From positions 1 to 54,163 of the forward strand of contig CALVPE010000019.1 of assembly GCA_944350485.1 (NCBI GenBank): DNA of 54,163 nt. Direction: 5' to 3'. Source of the DNA: an uncultured Bacilli bacterium. Lineage in GTDB: Bacteria > Bacillota_I > Bacilli_A > RF39 > UBA660. The notes beneath the pieces are model-generated. The model worked only from the letters and a program-made list of their open reading frames with translations. It did not search any database and had not been told where the DNA came from. The position numbers were made by a program, and so were the translations under genes. Positions 4,534 to 54,163 of this stretch are shown piece after piece (the first letter of the stretch is position 1; the number at the start of each line of letters is the position of its first letter).

Positions 4534-5670
4534 CTACATCATATCCTTAAATAAACCATAAATATATTTTTCAATATCAAAAGATTCTAAATCATTGATT
4601 GTTTCTCCAAGCCCGATATATTTAACAGGAATGTCTAATTCTTCTTTAATAGCCAGAACAATACCACCTTTAGCTGTTCCATCTAATTTCGTTAGGATAA
4701 TACCGGTGACATTAGTTATTTCTTTGAAGTTTTTAGCTTGGCTAATCCCGTTTTGACCAGTTGTTGCATCAATTACTAATAAAGTTTCCTGAGGGGCATT
4801 TGGTATTAAACTACCAATTACTTTATTCATTTTCTCAAGTTCTTTCATTAAATTAATTTTATTTTGCAAACGTCCTGCCGTATCTATTAAAATAACATCT
4901 ATATTTTTTTCTTTAGCGATTTTTACTCCATCATAGATAACACTTGAAGGATCAGAATTTTCTTTTCCTTTAACAAACTCACATCCTACTCGTTTACTCC
5001 ACTCTTCTAGTTGTTCAATAGCTCCAGCTCTGAATGTATCACCTGCTACCATTAAAACACTTTTACCATCTTTTTTTAATTTGTTAGCAATTTTACCAAT
5101 CGTGGTTGTTTTTCCAACTCCGTTTACACCAATGAATAAAATAACAGTTGGACCATCTTGATTAAAATTAATTTTGTTAGTAATAATTGAGTTATCAACA
5201 TAAATAACAAATAATTCATCAACTATTACTTCTTTTAAATATTCTAAATCCGTGATATTTTCAGTTTTTACTCTTTTCCTTAAACGATCCATAAAAGATA
5301 AAACGGTATTAACTCCAATATCTGCCATAATCAAAATATCTTCTAATTCTTCAAAATATTCCTCCGTTATTTTTTTAGTTTTACTATTTAGAGAAATTAA
5401 ACGATTAACAAAGCCATTTCGACTTTTACTAAGACCTTTTTCATAAAGTTTAACTTCTTGCTTATTTTTTTCCTTTTCAAGTTCTAATTTTTCTTTTTCA
5501 TCATTTTTCTCTTTTTCAAAAACTTTAACTGTTTCTAATTCTATTAAATTATTATTTTCATTTGCAAAATCATCTGTATTATTATTTTCAAACTGATTTT
5601 GATTTTTTAAATCATCATTTATTTCTGTTTCTTTTTTAAATAAATTTTTAATATTTTTAAATAAACCCAT
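4534..5670 (-). CDS. ftsY: signal recognition particle receptor FtsY
   Basis: SRP GTPase motifs GVNGVGKTTT, DTAGR and TKLDGTAKGG. N-terminal acidic low-complexity region. Strong RBS GAGGAGG. Confidence 0.95.
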   Translation of the reverse strand: MGLFKNIKNLFKKETEINDDLKNQNQFENNNTDDFANENNNLIELETVKVFEKEKNDEKEKLELEKEKNKQEVKLYEKGLSKSRNGFVNRLISLNSKTKKITEEYFEELEDILIMADIGVNTVLSFMDRLRKRVKTENITDLEYLKEVIVDELFVIYVDNSIITNKINFNQDGPTVILFIGVNGVGKTTTIGKIANKLKKDGKSVLMVAGDTFRAGAIEQLEEWSKRVGCEFVKGKENSDPSSVIYDGVKIAKEKNIDVILIDTAGRLQNKINLMKELEKMNKVIGSLIPNAPQETLLVIDATTGQNGISQAKNFKEITNVTGIILTKLDGTAKGGIVLAIKEELDIPVKYIGLGETINDLESFDIEKYIYGLFKDMM

Positions 5671-7164: not shown

Positions 7165-8394
7165 TTAATATCTTGTAACACGATTTGAAAACCAAACTCC
7201 TGGAGCTGGAAAGTTGACAATACTTGTTGGATTAATATTATGAGCTTCATATTGGTAATAATAAGAGTAATCTCTTAAATAATGACCTGTTAAAACAGCA
7301 AAGTGTAAATGTTGTCCCGTAGTACAATTGTCATACCACCAAGTATCTGGTCCACCACCCATAGTAGCAATTACAGTGTTCTGATCAACATAATCACCAA
7401 CTTTTACTTGAATATTTTTTACATGAAAATAAGAAGTTGTGTATTTATGCCCACCAACATTATGAATAATATAAATTTTATTACCACCACATAAATATTT
7501 ACCGGTTGCATTTTTATAATCAGGACCACTTTCAAGTCCTACAACAACTCCTGGAGCAGCCGCATAAATTCTAGTATCTCCACCAGCAATATCAATACCA
7601 TTATGGAATCCACAATAATATTGTCCATTATTTCTAGTATAACATCTCCAACCAAAAACACTAGTTATGCGACCATTTAAAACTGGTCTAATAAAATTAC
7701 CAGAATAAGGAACTGTCCCACAAGAATTAATATCTTCATCCAATTCACATTTTAGATCTTTTTCATAATAATTTATAGCTTTTTTTAAGTTGTTTATTTC
7801 TTCTTCAATGGACATAGAAACATCAGCCATAGCATTTAATTCTGAGCCAAGAGAAATTAAACTAACTTTTAGTTCTTCTTGTTTTTTAGCCAAGTTTTGC
7901 ATTTCTATTTTTAACTCACCTTGTTTCTTTTTATTTTTAGTTATAGTATCATTATATTCTTCAATTAACTTATCATTATAAGAAACAAGTTGTTCTGATA
8001 TAGCACTACGATAAATAAAATCTGTAATATCTTTGGCCCCAAATATATATTCAAGATAAGCACTTTCTCCACTAGAAATTTGTAAAAAATGAATTACTTC
8101 CTTAATTTCTAATTCTCTTTGCTTAGCTTTTTCATTTAATTCCTCTATTTCTTTATTTAATCTTTTAATATTATTTTCACTTTCAGTTATCTTACGACTT
8201 GTCTCTTCGATTGACCGATTAACATTATTTAATTCTTGCTCAGTTAATTTTTTTTCATTATCAGCATTAGCTTTTTTTTGTTCTAAAGTGGTTAATTCAT
8301 TTTTCATATCCCGAAGTGTTTTTGCCTTAGCATTTAAAGGGATAATTAACAAAACAAATAAAAATATTAAAAATATCATCATTCTTCTCTTCAT
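7165..8394 (-). CDS. M23-family peptidoglycan metalloendopeptidase with N-terminal coiled coil
   Basis: Signal peptide MKRRMMIFLIFLFVLLIIPLNAKA. Long heptad-rich region. M23 metal motifs HNGIDIAG and HLHFAV. Confidence 0.85.
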   Translation of the reverse strand: MKRRMMIFLIFLFVLLIIPLNAKAKTLRDMKNELTTLEQKKANADNEKKLTEQELNNVNRSIEETSRKITESENNIKRLNKEIEELNEKAKQRELEIKEVIHFLQISSGESAYLEYIFGAKDITDFIYRSAISEQLVSYNDKLIEEYNDTITKNKKKQGELKIEMQNLAKKQEELKVSLISLGSELNAMADVSMSIEEEINNLKKAINYYEKDLKCELDEDINSCGTVPYSGNFIRPVLNGRITSVFGWRCYTRNNGQYYCGFHNGIDIAGGDTRIYAAAPGVVVGLESGPDYKNATGKYLCGGNKIYIIHNVGGHKYTTSYFHVKNIQVKVGDYVDQNTVIATMGGGPDTWWYDNCTTGQHLHFAVLTGHYLRDYSYYYQYEAHNINPTSIVNFPAPGVWFSNRVTRY

Positions 8395-39782: not shown

Positions 39783-40076
39783 ATGTTAGATTTTTTAAAT
39801 CAAGTTTTAAAAAAAGAAGATATAAATTTAATACAAGAAAATATTTATGCATCAGATGTTTTTAATCTTAATTGTAATCAAGATGAATGTTTAAAAATTA
39901 TTAAATATTTACAAGAGTTAGGTATTAATAATATTACTGAATTAATAGTTAATCGTTTAGAAATTTTTTTAGATACTCTTGAGAAAATTAAAGAATTAAT
40001 ACCTAGTAATATTAATAAAGATTTAATTAAAAACATAAATGATGATTATATTAATATAGATTATCTCTATAACTAA
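39783..40076 (+). CDS. hypothetical small helical protein
   Basis: 97 aa with a GAGGAG RBS. It starts 1 nt after the upstream stop. It contains the same ELGINNITELI-type module seen in the preceding protein. Confidence 0.55.
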   Translation: MLDFLNQVLKKEDINLIQENIYASDVFNLNCNQDECLKIIKYLQELGINNITELIVNRLEIFLDTLEKIKELIPSNINKDLIKNINDDYINIDYLYN

Positions 40077-40086
40077 TATTTAATTT

Positions 40087-40124
40087 AAATAGTTTAAAAA
40101 CTAATTTTTGAACTATTTTTTATT
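40087..40124 (+). terminator. rho-independent terminator after the four-gene operon
   Basis: Long imperfect hairpin aaatagtttaaaaa / tttttgaactattt followed by a T-run. Confidence 0.6.
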
Positions 40125-40213
40125 TAATTTTATAAATTTAAAAATTTATAATTTTTTTCTACAATTATTATTTAGACATGTTATAATTGTTGTTGTTAAT
40201 TAAAGGAGTATAC

Positions 40214-41800
40214 ATGAAGATTAAACAAAATATAATTAATTTAAAAAATAAATTTAAATTTTTAATAAATAAAGAAAACTTTTCTAAAAAGTATTTAAAT
40301 ACTAATTATAAAGCAAAGATAAAAATAATCTATATAACTATCATTTTTATAGTTATTTTCTTTTGCCTACTAGTATTTAATAATTTTAATAAAAAAGGAA
40401 TTAAAAATATTAAAATTCAAAACACTAATTTTCAGGAAATAGAAATTAGTTGGAATTCTTTAGAAAAATCAGAAAATATAGAAATAATTCTATCAGAAGA
40501 AAGATTCAATCATGATACTATTTTAAATGATTTAAATAATAATAAATTAAATTCAAATAATAAAAGAATTACTGCTAAAAATAAAAATAAAGTTACTATT
40601 AATAATCTTTTATCAAATACAGATTACTATGTTTTAGTAACTAGTTATAAAACTTTTAATAAACAAAAAATATATAATAAAGATTATAAAATTATGAAAA
40701 TCCATACTAGTCCTTTAAAAGTTGGCAAAGTATCTAATCTTAATAGTTTAGATATTACTAATGAAAGTATTAAATTAATCTGAAAAAATTGGACTACTAA
40801 CAATAAAAATCATGATAATAGTAATATTAAAATAACTTATAGTTTATATGAAGTTGATCAAAAAAATAATAATTTAAGTTTAATACAAGATAATATTAAA
40901 AAAAATGAAATTGTTATTAATAATTTAAAATCTTTAACCAAATATTGTTATAAAGTAATCGTTAATGTTTTAATTGATGGAAAAATTATTACTAATTTTG
41001 ATGGTGATTTATTAGAAGTTACTACAAAACCACAAGCTATACAAAATATTATAGCTAAAGAAAATAATAATAATTCAATAACTATTTCTTGGAGTGAAGT
41101 CAATGAAAATAAAGATAATGACATAACTTATTCTTTATATGGATCAGATAGTATTAAAGGTAATTTTAATTTAATTGCTGATAATCTTAAAAGTTTAAGT
41201 TATACTGAGATGGGTTTAACAAATGGGAAAACAAGATATTATTATGTTGTTACAAATGCTAATATAAATGGTTTAAAATATAAAAGTAATCGTAGTAATA
41301 TTGTTGAAGCTACTACTAAAAAAAATCTTTTAAATAATTATTCTAATTTTACTATTGATTATTATAATAATATTAATGATACAGATAATTCTAATAATAA
41401 TCCTGTTTTTAATTATCCCAGTAATGATAATTATTATTCTAGTGAAGAACAAAAAGCAAGAACTATTGCTAAAAATATAGCAAATAGTATTACTGGAAGC
41501 AGTGATTTAGAAAAAGTAAGAAAAGCTGCCCAAGTTGTTTATAATTATTATAAACAAGGAACTTATAATACTACCAGTAAGTATCATAACACTCCTTATG
41601 GAGTATTTGTTGATAAAAAATCTTCTTGTGCAGGAACAGCTAGAGCTTTAGGATTAGTTTTAGAGTATCTTGGTTATAATTGGAAACATCAAAATGAAAA
41701 TAAGTGGACACATCAATGGGTTGTTGTTACTATAGATGGGAAAACTGGTTGGGCTGATGGAATGCTTGGTATGACAGAATATGGTAGTTTTCCTTTTTAA
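40214..41800 (+). pseudogene. membrane-anchored 3x FN3 plus transglutaminase-like-core surface protein, interrupted by one in-frame TGA (40781-40783)
   Basis: Track ORFs 40187-40783 and 41210-41800 are in the same frame. The intervening 40784-41209 is open. The combined product has a TM anchor, three FN3-like repeats and a C-terminal SSCAGTARALG...THQWVVV...GWAD core. Confidence 0.75.
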
Positions 41801-48251: not shown

Positions 48252-49676
48252 CTATTTTTGAATTAATAGTTCTAGTCTTTCATCATATCTTAAAACTTTA
48301 CTATAATAATCCTTACCATTACCATTAAATAAACCATGACGACTATTTGAATAACCTGCTACTATATAATCTGTTGTTTGATTAATTAAATTAGCATCAT
48401 CAGGAATAGCTTTAATAATTGAAGTTAAATTATCATTTTTTTTGCCACCATAAACTTTTTTATTTAACACTTTTCCTTCATAATTAAATGCAACTATCAT
48501 GGCTTCTAACATATCTTTTTGATAATTTAAATCATCTATTTCAATATCACTTGATTTAGTATATCCAACAGCAATTATTTTATTATCAAGTAAAATTAAA
48601 GAATTAAAACGATCATCTTGATTACCTTTTAAAGTCATTTGACTAAGTAATTCACCATTTAAATCATAAACAAAAATACAAGCATCATATTCATAAATGG
48701 CATTTCCATCAGCATCTTTTTTATCAGAAGTATTATAACTTGAAGCAATATAAAGTTTATCATCTTTTAATAACATATTAGAAAAACCAAAAGTATCAGT
48801 GTTAGCATAATTTTTAATCCAAAGTTTAGTTCCATTTAAATCAAATTTAACAAGCATACCATAGTTAGCTGCATCTTTACCACAAGCAATATAACCATCA
48901 TCAACTCTAACTAAATCATTGAAAATTCCCGACTTATTACCACCATGATTATTAGTCCAAACAAAATTACCATCTAAATCATATTTAACAATAATTCCAC
49001 CCCCCATAGGATGATTTCCTATTTCCATATTTTCATAGATACTTTGACCAACAACTACAATACCATCTTCTACTACTAAAACTTTTTTAAACTCCGTATC
49101 ACCTAAAACTTGATAATTCTTACTCCAAACAAAATTACCATCTAAATCATATTTAACAATTAAACCATCTCTTGTATTAAGACTTAATTGCTTCTTTTCA
49201 TAGACATAACTACCAACAGCAATATAACCATCATCTACTTTAACAACATCATAAAAAGTAGAATCATAATCACTTTTAAAAGTACTTTCAAAAACAACAT
49301 TTAATTCTTTATCATATTTTACAAATTTAGCTTTCTCTGCATAAATTTTTTGAACTTCTTTATCTTTCTCATTTTGATATTCATAAATAAACGGTTCATT
49401 ATAACGACTATGTTTAAAATTACTAGAACCAGCTGCTATATAATAACTATCATCAACACTTCGAATACTATTTAAACTATCGGTATAAGTAATCTTATTT
49501 TCTCTTGAAATATGCATAACTAACATAACAATTAATTCAATAGCAACTATAACAAGACAAACTAAACCAATTAATTTAGCTTTTCTTTTTAAAGATAAAT
49601 TATCAATTGTCTCTTTTTTGTTTTGTTTTTTCTTATTTTTTAAATTTTTATCTTTAGATACATTATTTTTACCCAC
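48252..49676 (-). CDS. membrane-anchored beta-propeller-like repeat protein
   Basis: GTG start after AGGTGG. It has a basic N-terminus and a TM helix, followed by repeated units containing VKYDLDGNFVW, VKFDLNGTKLW and VYDLNGELL. Confidence 0.7.
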   Translation of the reverse strand: MGKNNVSKDKNLKNKKKQNKKETIDNLSLKRKAKLIGLVCLVIVAIELIVMLVMHISRENKITYTDSLNSIRSVDDSYYIAAGSSNFKHSRYNEPFIYEYQNEKDKEVQKIYAEKAKFVKYDKELNVVFESTFKSDYDSTFYDVVKVDDGYIAVGSYVYEKKQLSLNTRDGLIVKYDLDGNFVWSKNYQVLGDTEFKKVLVVEDGIVVVGQSIYENMEIGNHPMGGGIIVKYDLDGNFVWTNNHGGNKSGIFNDLVRVDDGYIACGKDAANYGMLVKFDLNGTKLWIKNYANTDTFGFSNMLLKDDKLYIASSYNTSDKKDADGNAIYEYDACIFVYDLNGELLSQMTLKGNQDDRFNSLILLDNKIIAVGYTKSSDIEIDDLNYQKDMLEAMIVAFNYEGKVLNKKVYGGKKNDNLTSIIKAIPDDANLINQTTDYIVAGYSNSRHGLFNGNGKDYYSKVLRYDERLELLIQK

Positions 49677-50963: not shown

Positions 50964-51125
50964 ACAAAAAACATTACAATTAAGGACGAACTAACCGTGG
51001 TACCACCTTATTTTGTAATGTTATTTACACTCATTAAGATAACGCTTCAAGCGATTTAACTCCATTTACGTAACTTCCCTATTAAACCTATTAGTTTGCA
51101 CCAACCACTAATTCTCTAAAACAAA
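50964..51125 (-). promoter_or_regulatory. T-box leader (tyrosine-specific) upstream of tyrS
   Basis: On the minus strand there is an AGAGA box near 51118. A UAC triplet lies in the context gggaagUUACGuaaaugg (51072-51070). The T-box core is AAGGUGGUACCACGG (51009-50995). A terminator (aacattacaa...ttgtaatgtt) with a T-run follows. Confidence 0.85.
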
Positions 51126-51229
51126 TTTAATAGTTAAATATAAACTTCTTTGTTAAATATGATTATATGTTATCAAACTTATTAATAAATTACAAGTATT
51201 TTAAATTATTTTTCATTAAAATTATCTTT

Positions 51230-52064
51230 AATAATTTGTTCTACTTCAGAAGTTGATAAGTAGAATATTCACTAATTAAATTTAAAGGTAAATTTTTATG
51301 ATACATATTCATAATCATTTTTTAGTTTCAAGACTTCCTACATCTTTTCATTTAAAATAAGCACTTTTATGAAGAATTTTTCTCCATTATTCGCCAACTT
51401 TCTTTATTCATAATTTCCATCCTATAAGTATCTTTATTTGATAAATAAATTAGCTTTATTTAATAATTATTAAGTAGTTTTTCTTCTTTGATAAAAGATT
51501 TTAACTTATCTTTTTTTTGTAATTGTAAGATACTTACAAACTTTTCACATTACCATAACTTTTTTAAGACATTTATAAGACTTATATTTAGACAATATCA
51601 TCCCAAACCAACCTTATAAATTTAATTATTAAGCATTACATATTTTATTTAATTACACCATCTTTTTATACATCAGTTAGTTTAAATCTATCAATAAACA
51701 AATTAATCTCTTTTTAATCCACTCCTCACTATAACCCTTATTACGATAATAATTAACAGCTCTATTAATAGTAAGTTCAGGATCAAATACTTCATCAATT
51801 CTTTCACTTCCAAGAGATGCTAACCAAAGTTTAAATGGTTCTGCTTTAGGACTTAGAATAGTTTAAATTAAACGTAAAATACCCTTTATATCAAGTGTAT
51901 CGGTTTCTCTTAATTTTCCATCTTGAGATTTCATTTTCAAACGTACGATATTTTCGTACAATTGACTTCCTTCATCAACAAGTTTCTTTTTCAACATCCC
52001 ATATACTTCTAATTTCTTTATCTTCAAAAAGATTTGATATTGTTTTTAATTTATTTTCTTACAT
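51230..52064 (-). pseudogene. decayed DinD/Bro-N-like (DNA-damage-inducible protein D-like) gene
   Basis: Minus-strand fragments read LFEDKEIRSIWDVEKE, then LVDEGSQLYENIVRLKMKSQDGKLRETDTLDIKGILRLI*TILSPKAEPFKLWLASLGSERIDEVFDPELTINRAVNYYRNKGYSEEWIKKRL. These carry a stop at codon 2, an internal deletion with frameshift, and a TAA where family members have Gln. The C-terminal half is heavily degraded. The boundaries are approximate. Confidence 0.6.
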
Positions 52065-52280
52065 ATTTAACTATCTATTTCCTCCTTTCTTTTTGATAAA
52101 TTCACTATAACAAGCTCTATTAAAAAACGCAAATTATGATTTTAAAATCAAAACTATTTCAAATAAGAAAATTACTTAATATAAATTTTTTAAATTAACT
52201 ATCTTTTTTTAAGTAATTTTTCAATTTTAACTAAATTTCTAAAAAAAACATTTTTCTTACTTAACATAATTTTACACATA

Positions 52281-53249
52281 TTATTTAACATAACTAAAAT
52301 AATGTTTATAAAAATTATAATTATTTATATTAATTTTCTTTAAAATAATTTTCTTTTCCTTCTTACTAATTCTTTTAATAATCTTATTATTTTTAACCAA
52401 ATACTTAATACCTAAAAAAGAAAAACCTTCATAACTAACATAAATCTTTGTCTTACTATTAAACTCTAATTCTAATTTTTTAATCTCTATCTTTAACTTA
52501 TTAAAGATAGAAACTAATCTTTCTTTATCACTATCAAAAATAATTCCATCATCCATATATCTTATATAATATTTACAACCAATTTTTTCTTTAATAAAAT
52601 GATCTAAATCATTTAAATAAAAAACAGCCAACATTTGACTACAAATAGAACCAATACTTAAACCATAACCAATTTTATAATAAGGTAAATTAAGTTTATA
52701 TTTATCATTTATTTTTTTTATATTTAAATTAATATAACTTTGATTAGTACATTTAATAATATTTTTAACAATTAAAATTTCTTCTTTATTTAAATATTTA
52801 CTTAATTTATTAAGTAAAATATCATGATTAATATTAAAAAAATATTTTTTTATATCAAACTTTAAAATATAAAATATCTTATTATTCTTTTTAATATCAA
52901 TTAAATATTTATTTATTAAATATCTTCCATATTTAGTACCTTTATTTACCCTACTAGCTACATTACTATTGATTAAATTTTTATCTAATTTACTAAGTAT
53001 AAAATCACTTACTAAATGATTATAAATCTTATCATAAATATTATTACTAAGTATTAAACGATATTTTTTATCTTTAATGAAAAAAATATTATAATTACCT
53101 AATTTATAATCATTATTATTAATCTTCTTAACAATATAATTAATATTACTATAAAGTAATAATTCAAAATAAAATATTTTATTTTTATTTCTTATATTAC
53201 TTCTTATTTTTAAATAAACATTATATACTATTTCAAAATTAACATTCAT
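52281..53249 (-). CDS. diversity-generating retroelement (DGR)-type reverse transcriptase
   Basis: RT motifs ILKFDIKKYFFNINH, GLSIGSICSQMLAVFYLNDLDHFI (the DGR-type I/LGxxxSQ rather than the QGxxxSP of group II introns and retrons), YIRYMDDGIIF and SFLGIKY. About 320 aa. The ATG overlaps the avd TGA stop (ATGA). Confidence 0.85.
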   Translation of the reverse strand: MNVNFEIVYNVYLKIRSNIRNKNKIFYFELLLYSNINYIVKKINNNDYKLGNYNIFFIKDKKYRLILSNNIYDKIYNHLVSDFILSKLDKNLINSNVASRVNKGTKYGRYLINKYLIDIKKNNKIFYILKFDIKKYFFNINHDILLNKLSKYLNKEEILIVKNIIKCTNQSYINLNIKKINDKYKLNLPYYKIGYGLSIGSICSQMLAVFYLNDLDHFIKEKIGCKYYIRYMDDGIIFDSDKERLVSIFNKLKIEIKKLELEFNSKTKIYVSYEGFSFLGIKYLVKNNKIIKRISKKEKKIILKKININNYNFYKHYFSYVK

Positions 53250-53575
53250 TTCATCCAACCTAAAACTAATTTTAAAATAGTTAATAAATCTTTACTAATA
53301 TTATCATATTGCTTATCTAAAACAATATGATATTTTAATAATTTAAAAAAATAAAAATCTAGCATTTTAATTTTTACAATTATTTTCCTTTGATAATTTT
53401 TTCTTTTATTAATTTCTAATAAATTAGTATAATAAATATCTTCTAAAATAGAATACATTGTATTAATAATTTTTGTTTTTAAATCTTTATAAGAATTATT
53501 TAAATTAATAACTAATAATTCATATCTATTTATAAATAATTTATATTCTTTAATTAAAATTAATTTATCAGTCAT
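53246..53575 (-). CDS. avd: Avd-like accessory variability determinant (four-helix-bundle type)
   Basis: 109-aa basic helical protein immediately upstream of, and overlapping, the RT. The segment YELLVINL and the C-terminal LVLGWMK resemble the Avd pattern (YERV...ILGSW). GAGGT RBS. Confidence 0.7.
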   Translation of the reverse strand: MTDKLILIKEYKLFINRYELLVINLNNSYKDLKTKIINTMYSILEDIYYTNLLEINKRKNYQRKIIVKIKMLDFYFFKLLKYHIVLDKQYDNISKDLLTILKLVLGWMK

Positions 53576-53909
53576 AATTACCTCGATAATTATCTATTAG
53601 TTGTTGAATTTCATATTTTTTATTAGCCAACATTAAATAATAATCATATTGATTATTAACAAAATCATGATAAATACCTAAATAAAAATAATTAATATAA
53701 AGTTTATCAAAAATATAGAAAATATAATCAAGATTATTTTTAGGAAGAAATCCTATTTGATTATTTAATTTGATATTAAAAAGATAATAACAAATAATTG
53801 CATCTTTCCCTATAACTTTAAGAAACAAACCATTGTTTATTAAAATTATTTTATTGGAATTAACACTTATATATGTTTGATTAGTGTACCCCTCCCCCCA
53901 GATTGACAT
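53568..53909 (-). CDS. small MutS-domain-I-like accessory protein of the DGR cassette
   Basis: 113 aa. The segment QTYISVNSNKIILINNGLFLKVIGKDAIICYYLFNIKL...GFLPKNNLDYIFYIFDKLYINY aligns by eye with the MutS mismatch-binding domain I pattern (QY..iK....ilffr.GDFYE.F..DA...a..L.i.LT......GvP......y...L...G). It overlaps avd by 8 nt. Confidence 0.5.
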   Translation of the reverse strand: MSIWGEGYTNQTYISVNSNKIILINNGLFLKVIGKDAIICYYLFNIKLNNQIGFLPKNNLDYIFYIFDKLYINYFYLGIYHDFVNNQYDYYLMLANKKYEIQQLIDNYRGNYD

Positions 53910-54006
53910 GTCAATTTATGTAAATATTCCTTATTGTTCAAACATTTTTTAGTGTTTTTTGATTGATTTTCTTGCATAAATTTTACATTTCCTTTCTTAA
54001 ATATAT

Positions 54007-54036
54007 AAAAAAGAAACACATCCCATTTGTGTTTCT
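54007..54036 (-). terminator. rho-independent terminator upstream of the DGR cassette
   Basis: 9-bp stem agaaacaca / tgtgtttct with a 7-nt loop, followed on the minus strand by a T-run. It insulates the cassette from whatever lies beyond the window end. Confidence 0.7.
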
Positions 54037-54163
54037 AAAAAAAACTTAATGCGAGTTTACTAGCCTTCTATCACCTAAAGCGAACAAGACATCTCCATTT
54101 AATATTTTAGTCTACAAAATATAAACAAGGAAACGTGGCTGTTTATAGTCTTTTATAACTAAG

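Follow-up and report, generated by a model that had tools for sequence, protein, structure and literature searches.

A probable MSL-type diversity-generating retroelement on the chromosome of a very AT-rich Bacilli bacterium

At the end of contig CALVPE010000019.1, from an uncultured Bacilli bacterium, three small overlapping genes are found, one of which encodes a reverse transcriptase (RT). An initial annotation of this 54,163-nt stretch of DNA (hereafter the window, whose positions serve as coordinates throughout) took them for the cassette of a diversity-generating retroelement (DGR), in which the RT is accompanied by a protein resembling the accessory variability determinant (Avd) and by a 113-aa protein resembling domain I of MutS, a protein of mismatch repair. 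The locus raises the question of whether this is indeed a DGR, where its template repeat (TR), variable repeat (VR) and target gene are situated, and whether the third protein is truly a relative of MutS. Our reading, to which we assign a probability of about 0.88, is that positions 52281-54163 are the enzymatic half of a chromosomal DGR of the type that carries a MutS-like accessory gene (MSL), with the order target, TR, structured spacer, MSL, avd and RT. Homologous loci or contigs are designated by L-numbers and relative proteins by P-numbers.

Reverse transcriptase and Avd of the cassette

All three genes lie on the minus strand. The RT gene (52281..53249) encodes 322 aa from an ATG at 53249; the mechanically called open reading frame (ORF) is 325 aa long, starting from a TTG at 53258, three codons before that ATG. 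The avd gene (53246..53575) encodes 109 aa with an isoelectric point (pI) of 9.6, and its stop overlaps the RT start. The MSL or Msl gene, ORF113 (53568..53909), encodes a stand-alone, MutS-domain-I-like accessory protein of 113 aa and pI 6.5. Read directly from the sequence, the MSL-avd junction is an 8-nt overlap (ATGACTGA) and the avd-RT junction is ATGA, so that the three overlapping genes of the initial annotation are borne out in their positions and at both junctions. Over 2,011 nt the window is matched at 100% identity by a second contig, L001 (ENA ERZ24773292), on which the same three genes were called independently.

Both RT motifs singled out beforehand, SIGSICSQ and YMDD, are present in the translated sequence, the latter being the catalytic motif. 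DGR RTs carry the signature [I/V/L]GxxxSQ in place of QGxxxSP (PMC7826257), and IGSICSQ in the window RT conforms to it. The protein matched RVT_1 in Pfam (6e-20) and PHROG 1423 in PHROGs (3e-53). Its best relative among PDB chains is 8ub7_A (E=1.8e-15, residues 27-300), which sequence comparison identified as brt of Bordetella phage BPP-1 (100% identity); group II maturases followed at 6e-6 and a retron RT at 1e-3. In NCBIfam, group_II_RT_mat was matched at 7.7e-21 with 74.6 bits against a cut-off of 300, and Drt3a at 5.7e-12 with 45.7 bits against a cut-off of 200. Many DRT/UG models of PADLOC were matched at 1e-20 or weaker, all of them generic RT-domain matches with no partner genes. An Rfam scan around the locus gave no group II intron or retron RNA, whether judged by the gathering threshold or by E<=1, and a scan of GTDB representative genomes with the RT returned as its sole relative an Elusimicrobiota RT that is 24% identical. 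With the IGxxxSQ motif, the BPP-1 enzyme as closest solved relative and the group II and Drt3a models far under their cut-offs, the proposed DGR assignment stands, and by its sequence the RT is of the DGR type.

The 109-aa protein had been described as Avd-like and is likewise supported. It matched NCBIfam DivGenRetAVD over residues 6-109 at 1.6e-5, a score under the curated cut-off, and PHROG 3206, ‘Avd protein of DGR’, over its full length at 2e-6. It is 48% identical to its homolog in the cassette of L007, which itself passes the Pfam bAvd threshold (44.8 bits against 40). When the Avd family profile was compared with the PDB, 2rld was reached at 1.3e-4 and 4dwl (Bbp7) at 0.7, both over the full length. 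The pI of 9.6 agrees with the value of 9.5 +/- 0.7 given for Avd by Wu et al. 2018 (PMC5758913). Judged on such sequence comparisons, the 109-aa protein is Avd.

A small protein related to MutS domain I

The resemblance of ORF113 to MutS was the weakest of the original claims, and what sustains it is the family around the protein together with structure and profile alignment. ORF113 found 9 relatives among 1.84 billion representatives, and a profile search widened the family to 57 small proteins, while a word-indexed search with ORF113 alone returned one fragment only. Pfam MutS_I (PF01624) was matched independently by 25 of the 46 aligned family members, the best at 4e-10; no other family recurs in more than two of these 46. 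Matches of the family profiles to GNAT and kinesin coiled-coil entries of the PDB were judged to be compositional and were set aside. HRDC was also looked for in the cassette and gave no match.

Structure comparison leads to the same place. An AF2 model of ORF113 built with the family alignment reached a predicted local distance difference test (pLDDT) score of 84.9; a single-sequence model scored poorly (pLDDT 59.5) and was discarded. Searched against the PDB with Foldseek, the model had MutS or MSH proteins as all of its 50 top matches, the best being 1wbb_B with a probability of 1.00, a root-mean-square deviation of 1.1 Å over 55 columns and E=0.05. The alignment by hhalign to residues 1-120 of E. 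coli MutS (P=0.0015) covers MutS residues 21-83 only; it places G27-L-F29-L-K31 of ORF113 on G34-D-F36-Y-E38 of MutS, and D36 on D43. A GxFY..F..DA core that includes the mismatch-intercalating Phe is nearly invariant across the MSL family, with Phe in the F36-equivalent column in 45 of 46 members and Glu in the E38-equivalent column in 3 of 46.

Glu38 is essential for mismatch discrimination by MutS. ORF113 is a single domain in which the Phe-X-Glu motif has Lys for Glu, and it is no repair MutS, because it comprises 113 aa only, without the connector, core, clamp and ATPase domains. We conclude that ORF113 is a stand-alone, diverged MutS domain I, a homology that is well supported even if its function has diverged. 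The initial annotation had also pointed to MutS-like accessory ORFs at some DGR loci, and these correspond to the published MSL/Msl class. Wu et al. 2018 (PMC5758913) defined it from 16 DGRs, in which the proteins span 112-283 aa, have a pI of 7.2 +/- 1.7 and are in every case accompanied by avd, in an arrangement named ‘Architecture D’, and Msl is also found in the Bacteroides DGRs Bfr, Bth and Bun (bioRxiv 10.1101/2024.11.15.621889).

Members of the MSL family also occur in other settings. The gene for P0009 (110 aa; L003 1560-1892, also in L004 and L005) has SpoU/TrmH-type methylase and RimM genes as its neighbours and neither Avd nor RT close by, and hence not every family member is linked to a DGR. 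On the phage-like contig L028 (2173-6411, with a Phage_lysozyme gene nearby), where short ORFs are numerous, a weak bAvd gene and a fragmentary RT are present, and ~2.4-3.5 kb downstream of them is a family member matching MutS_I. The arrangement may be a different one, or the phage genome may be recoded.

Template repeat, target, spacer and flanks

The window is a whole contig, its 54,163 nt being also the length of the longest contig on which ORF113 was found. Within it, neither a repeat search nor an A-masked TR pattern detected a TR or VR. It stops within the first spacer hairpin, at a distance of 34 nt from the TR on its 3' side, and L001 reaches 350 nt beyond the window end. There the TR is located at L001 241-316, i.e. 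35-110 nt past position 54163; it is 76 nt long, AAC-rich, contains 24 adenines at 50% GC, and translates as VSSNVWYVNNNGNANNNNPSNSNGA. Farther out, at L001 1-88 (>260 nt past position 54163), is the 3' end of the target gene, a 29-aa tail that ends in ARPSINLKSTIKITGGNGTKESPFTLGE before the stop. Between the two are a terminator-like hairpin (L001 103-131) and a promoter-like site (L001 174-201), the latter followed by a small hairpin and then the TR. L001 begins with GTGCGCGCC, of which the first 7 nt are the same as the closing 7 nt of the TR; a break of the assembly at a VR end should leave just this. Homology between TR and VR ends at a GC-rich block, GGTGCGC being followed by GCCC in the VR and by TTAG in the TR, and a hairpin of 13 bp is conserved ~95 nt downstream of the VR. 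The two would be candidates for the target-site elements of a DGR, namely a GC-rich IMH at the 3' end of the VR (against IMH* in the TR) and a hairpin near it. The target had been called unknown; its location is now established, with target and TR immediately upstream of ORF113 and beyond the window, while the full target of this strain has not been recovered.

The initial annotation also expected adenine mutagenesis to have an unusual substrate in a genome composed almost wholly of A and T, which does not hold for the TR. Its composition is 50% GC and 32% A, against 15% GC and 44% A in the adjoining cassette. Because the TR is held as a GC island, its adenines are concentrated in AAC and AAT codons, as in other DGRs. 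An AT-rich genome can in this way accommodate a DGR, the island keeping adenines only where variation is wanted.

Adenine-specific differences between TR and VR are directly visible in complete relatives. L011 (GCA_963623605.1) and L012, whose RTs are 68% identical to that of the window, each contain a 631-aa DUF6273 target, a 78-nt TR, a spacer of ~260 nt, MSL, Avd and RT, and the target gene has two VRs at a spacing of 666 nt. TR adenines account for 14 of 15 and 17 of 19 TR/VR mismatches in L011, with changes to C, G and T; the corresponding counts in L012 are 15 of 22 and 8 of 9. The order MSL-Avd-RT is shared by L007-L012, L014, L030/L031 and the decayed L032, and L013 contains MSL and Avd before its contig end, so that the cassette recurs in at least five lineages; RTs of L007-L010 are 42% identical to the window RT. 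In L030, a more distant relative, the TR (7789-7886) is downstream of the RT and two target genes with VRs are upstream, and TR position therefore varies among MSL-type elements. The 98-nt VRs of L030 (3390-3487 and 5548-5645) are 100% identical to each other, and a 300-nt block (2581-2880 and 4739-5038) associated with them is identical as well, which indicates recent duplication or gene conversion.

The DUF6273 target family has at least 2,996 homologs, its few named members being from metagenome-assembled genomes of Erysipelotrichaceae or Bacilli, and the C-termini consist of a fixed scaffold with hypervariable positions. The homolog with the closest tail, P0117 (L033 7001-8830, DUF6273), has a VR-like C-terminus, and no TR, MSL, Avd or RT was found within 3.5 kb downstream of it. 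The DGR of L033 has been lost, unless it works in trans.

On the side of the TR that faces the cassette, positions 54037..54163 (minus strand) hold the 3' part of a conserved spacer RNA, as delimited from an alignment of four lineages; the window ends inside it. An invariant block in it, CTAAAAT..TAAATGGAGATGT, occupies 54089-54110, and hairpin P1 has its 3' arm at 54157-54163. In independent minimum-free-energy folds, the third pair of the hairpin just after the TR is C-G, T-A, A-T or T-G depending on lineage, and the stem-loop after the invariant block is formed by GTCTT/AAGAC or GTTCT/AGAAC. We consider the structure of the spacer RNA plausible. Rfam contains no family that matches it, and a metagenome scan with the conserved spacer motif gave 13 loci, of which 12 were chance matches in an unrelated coding gene and one, L027, is real.

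The spacer is followed by an intrinsic-terminator-like hairpin and T-run at 54005..54036 (minus strand; L001 478-502) with a 9-bp stem. A terminator scan of the region gave 2 terminator-like sites against 0.2 expected from shuffles, and the hairpin is found at the homologous place in four lineages with compensatory changes (GAAACAC/GTGTTTC vs GAAATAT/ATATTTC). It would end the TR-spacer RNA (L001 205-512), which appears to be a transcript separate from that of the MSL-avd-RT operon. Between terminator and MSL start is a leader (53910..54004, minus strand), defined by position only and poorly conserved in sequence between lineages, with one promoter-like consensus match (L001 505-534); it is presumed to be the promoter region of the operon. 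The spacer of BPP-1 primes cDNA synthesis, and by analogy the spacer described here probably serves as the DGR RNA's functional 3' part.

As noted in the initial annotation, the cassette is more AT-rich than its surroundings (GC 0.153-0.155 over 52001-54000 against 0.239 for the whole window) and core genes, confirmed as tyrS and EF-Tu, are beside it. However, the 1-kb bin 40001-41000 has a GC of 0.147, and since it is as low as the DGR cassette, low GC alone is no mark of foreign DNA. The phage origin that had been suggested found no support and was dropped: the best phage RT is 32% identical, and the flanking genes are housekeeping genes. A scan of viral contigs with the RT gave no relatives. 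The host of the cassette is very AT-rich (24% GC) and uses the standard code; the window contains no rRNA. Upstream of tyrS, at 50979-51159 on the minus strand, is a full-length T-box leader (72.2 bits, E=5.5e-15; Rfam gathering score 93), which fits a Bacillota-type host. From the T-box to the RT stop, over ~1.1 kb (51160-52280), no ORF exceeds 71 aa, and one of 54 aa (51863-52027, minus strand) has no Pfam match; this stretch may represent a gene in decay or the insertion boundary of the element. A 474-aa ORF at 48252-49676 (minus strand), also with no Pfam match, has internal direct repeats of ~47-55 nt at a spacing of 138-333 nt (48807-49257), which suggests a repeat-domain protein.

Mechanism, alternatives and known systems

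The element would operate through two transcripts. A short RNA from its own promoter would comprise a 5' hairpin, the 76-nt TR, whose 24 adenines are for the most part in AAC/AAT codons, and a conserved spacer of ~160 nt ending at the intrinsic terminator, and the tightly overlapped MSL-avd-RT operon would give rise to a basic RT-Avd complex. This complex would reverse-transcribe the TR, misincorporating specifically opposite template adenines, and the mutagenised cDNA would take the place of the homologous VR or VRs of the target gene, which is directly upstream, and would thereby recode a ligand-binding patch of ~26 residues in a surface-type target of the DUF6273 family. MSL, in which the Phe is kept and Glu38, the ATPase and the clamp are absent, would most likely bind the densely mismatched heteroduplex of cDNA and VR. 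We hypothesize that, having the Phe wedge and no means of signalling repair, it shields this heteroduplex, so that host mismatch repair, if the host has mutS, would be kept from restoring the parental sequence. Suppression of mismatch repair has been used to aid engineered DGRs, and in Bacteroides host MutS lowers DGR mutagenesis 5-10-fold in an all-or-nothing manner (bioRxiv 10.1101/2024.11.15.621889).

Several results weigh against an MSL-type DGR at this locus, and the competing explanations can be considered along with them. If the RT were not of the DGR type and were instead a group II maturase, a retron RT or a DRT/Abi RT beside two unrelated small ORFs, its matches to group_II_RT_mat, Drt3a and the DRT/UG models would be accounted for, and no DGR-RT model is among the PADLOC and NCBIfam matches to compete with them. 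However, the two NCBIfam scores are far under curated cut-offs, the motif is IGxxxSQ and not QGxxxSP, the BPP-1 enzyme is ahead of other solved RTs by ~10 orders of magnitude, and no group II intron or retron RNA was found by Rfam around the locus. An AAC-rich TR and Avd adjoin the RT, and its relatives have adenine-specific TR/VR pairs; a non-DGR RT is effectively refuted. For ORF113 the doubt is of a different kind, namely that the protein is linked to the DGR and shares a small alpha/beta fold with MutS while having another role, for example in binding the TR-spacer RNA or in bridging RT-Avd to DNA. ORF113 alone has no match in Pfam, NCBIfam, PADLOC or PHROGs, the family profile reached no MutS chain among PDB sequences, and the Foldseek E-values are individually weak (0.05-0.4). 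Only ~55-69 residues superpose, Glu38 is not conserved, the long C-terminal helix has no MutS counterpart, and no experimental test of MSL function was found in the literature reached. Set against this are the independent MutS_I matches in more than half of the aligned family, with no competing family, the uniformly MutS/MSH structural matches and the nearly invariant core with its intercalating Phe. We regard a role unrelated to that of MutS as unlikely, yet deserving of serious weight.

The RNA and the target bear on whether the element still functions. The folding energy of the TR-spacer RNA is no better than that of shuffled sequences (z = -0.29), and the spacer helices are backed by four lineages only. 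The VR of the window strain was not recovered by a search with the C-terminal tail of the target, its last ~7-9 nt being visible at the start of L001; as a consequence adenine mutagenesis is not demonstrated for the window copy, and we infer its activity. The locus could thus be a DGR by descent that is now an inactive relic in this strain, with genes that persist and a target no longer diversified. Decay does occur in close relatives. In L032 (604-2045) MSL is truncated (53 aa called) and the RT is split into 173 and 117 aa, and P0002 and P0008 lack part of the central MSL region through internal deletions; these copies appear to be decaying. L002 has 13 of 22 TR/VR mismatches at TR adenines and 9 of 22 at other bases, and looks inactive. 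A target homolog without an adjacent cassette (L033) and MSL-like genes without an RT (L003-L005) point in the same direction. Yet the ORFs in the window are all intact and overlap in register, YMDD and IGxxxSQ are present, and MSL is in frame through a poly-G tract described below. The 24 adenines of the TR in AAC and AAT codons, at 50% GC amid 15-26% GC, argue for ongoing selection, and the break in L001 coincides exactly with the limit of VR/TR homology, as one would expect of a repeat or of a VR that is heterogeneous. Taken with these features, a relic is rather improbable, and we favor an MSL-type DGR that would still be active.

The poly-G tract allows a further possibility concerning regulation. 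Direct reading of the coding strand gives G6AG4 (GGGGGGAGGGG) at codons 4-7 of the MSL gene (53889..53899, minus strand), where the surrounding DNA is ~15% GC, and the window MSL is in frame with its ATG through this tract. G7 tracts are present in L011 (3153-3159), L012 (2291-2297) and L013 (541-547), and a G8 tract in L032 (532-539). In all four loci the MSL body is out of frame with an upstream ATG preceded by a Shine-Dalgarno sequence, and a one-base change would fuse them. Because MSL, avd and RT are translationally coupled by their overlaps, such a change in the tract would switch the whole machinery. It is conceivable that the tract is a slipped-strand switch turning diversification on and off, i.e. 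a phase-variable DGR with MSL as a mismatch-repair decoy at the VR heteroduplex. We hold this to be doubtful: four independent contigs of one lineage all have G7, which disfavours frequent switching, and the MSL gene could alternatively start at a TTG or GTG just before the tract.

What the analysis newly establishes is the position of TR and target beyond the window and the adenine-specific pairs in complete relatives, together with a test of the MutS-like assignment. The MSL-type DGR that it contributes is compact and well delimited and comes from a gut-type bacterium of very high AT content, and its target family apparently carries two variable regions per protein. The minimal 113-aa MSL is a convenient starting point for asking whether mismatch repair is antagonised by a protein that DGRs themselves encode.

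Compared with MutS domain I (PF01624; residues 1-115 of E. coli MutS), ORF113 shares the fold, the GxFY..F..DA core and the alignment of F29 with the mismatch-intercalating F36. It differs in being stand-alone, in having Lys at the Glu38 equivalent, a position that is variable across the family, and in the long C-terminal helix that replaces the rest of domain I. With the DGR of BPP-1 (mtd-avd-TR-brt) the element has in common a homologous RT, an Avd with a weak match to 4dwl (Bbp7), a TR rich in AAC, a probable VR at the target's 3' end and, 3' of the TR, a conserved spacer in the position that the priming spacer has in BPP-1. However, the window element is chromosomal and not phage-borne, has an extra MSL gene, and has its TR before the accessory genes and not between avd and RT. 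At 76-78 nt the TR is short, two VRs per target gene occur in relatives, and the target is of the DUF6273 family and not Mtd.

The closest parallel is with the MSL-type DGRs, with which the element shares a target with a probable C-terminal VR, a TR, a small, near-neutral MutS-I-like protein, an Avd of basic pI and an RT bearing [I/V/L]GxxxSQ. At 113 aa and pI 6.5, the MSL of the window is within the ranges given by Wu et al. 2018, and as there it is accompanied by avd; the window cassette has no HRDC gene. It departs from them in its very AT-rich host (24% GC) and in that ORF113 is at the small, divergent edge of the family, where the protein alone fails Pfam MutS_I. The TR, too, is upstream of MSL on what is apparently a separate, terminator-bounded RNA, while that of L030 is downstream of the RT. 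The element is thus a genuine but ordinary addition to the already described MSL-type DGRs, and the general picture of DGRs is unchanged by it.

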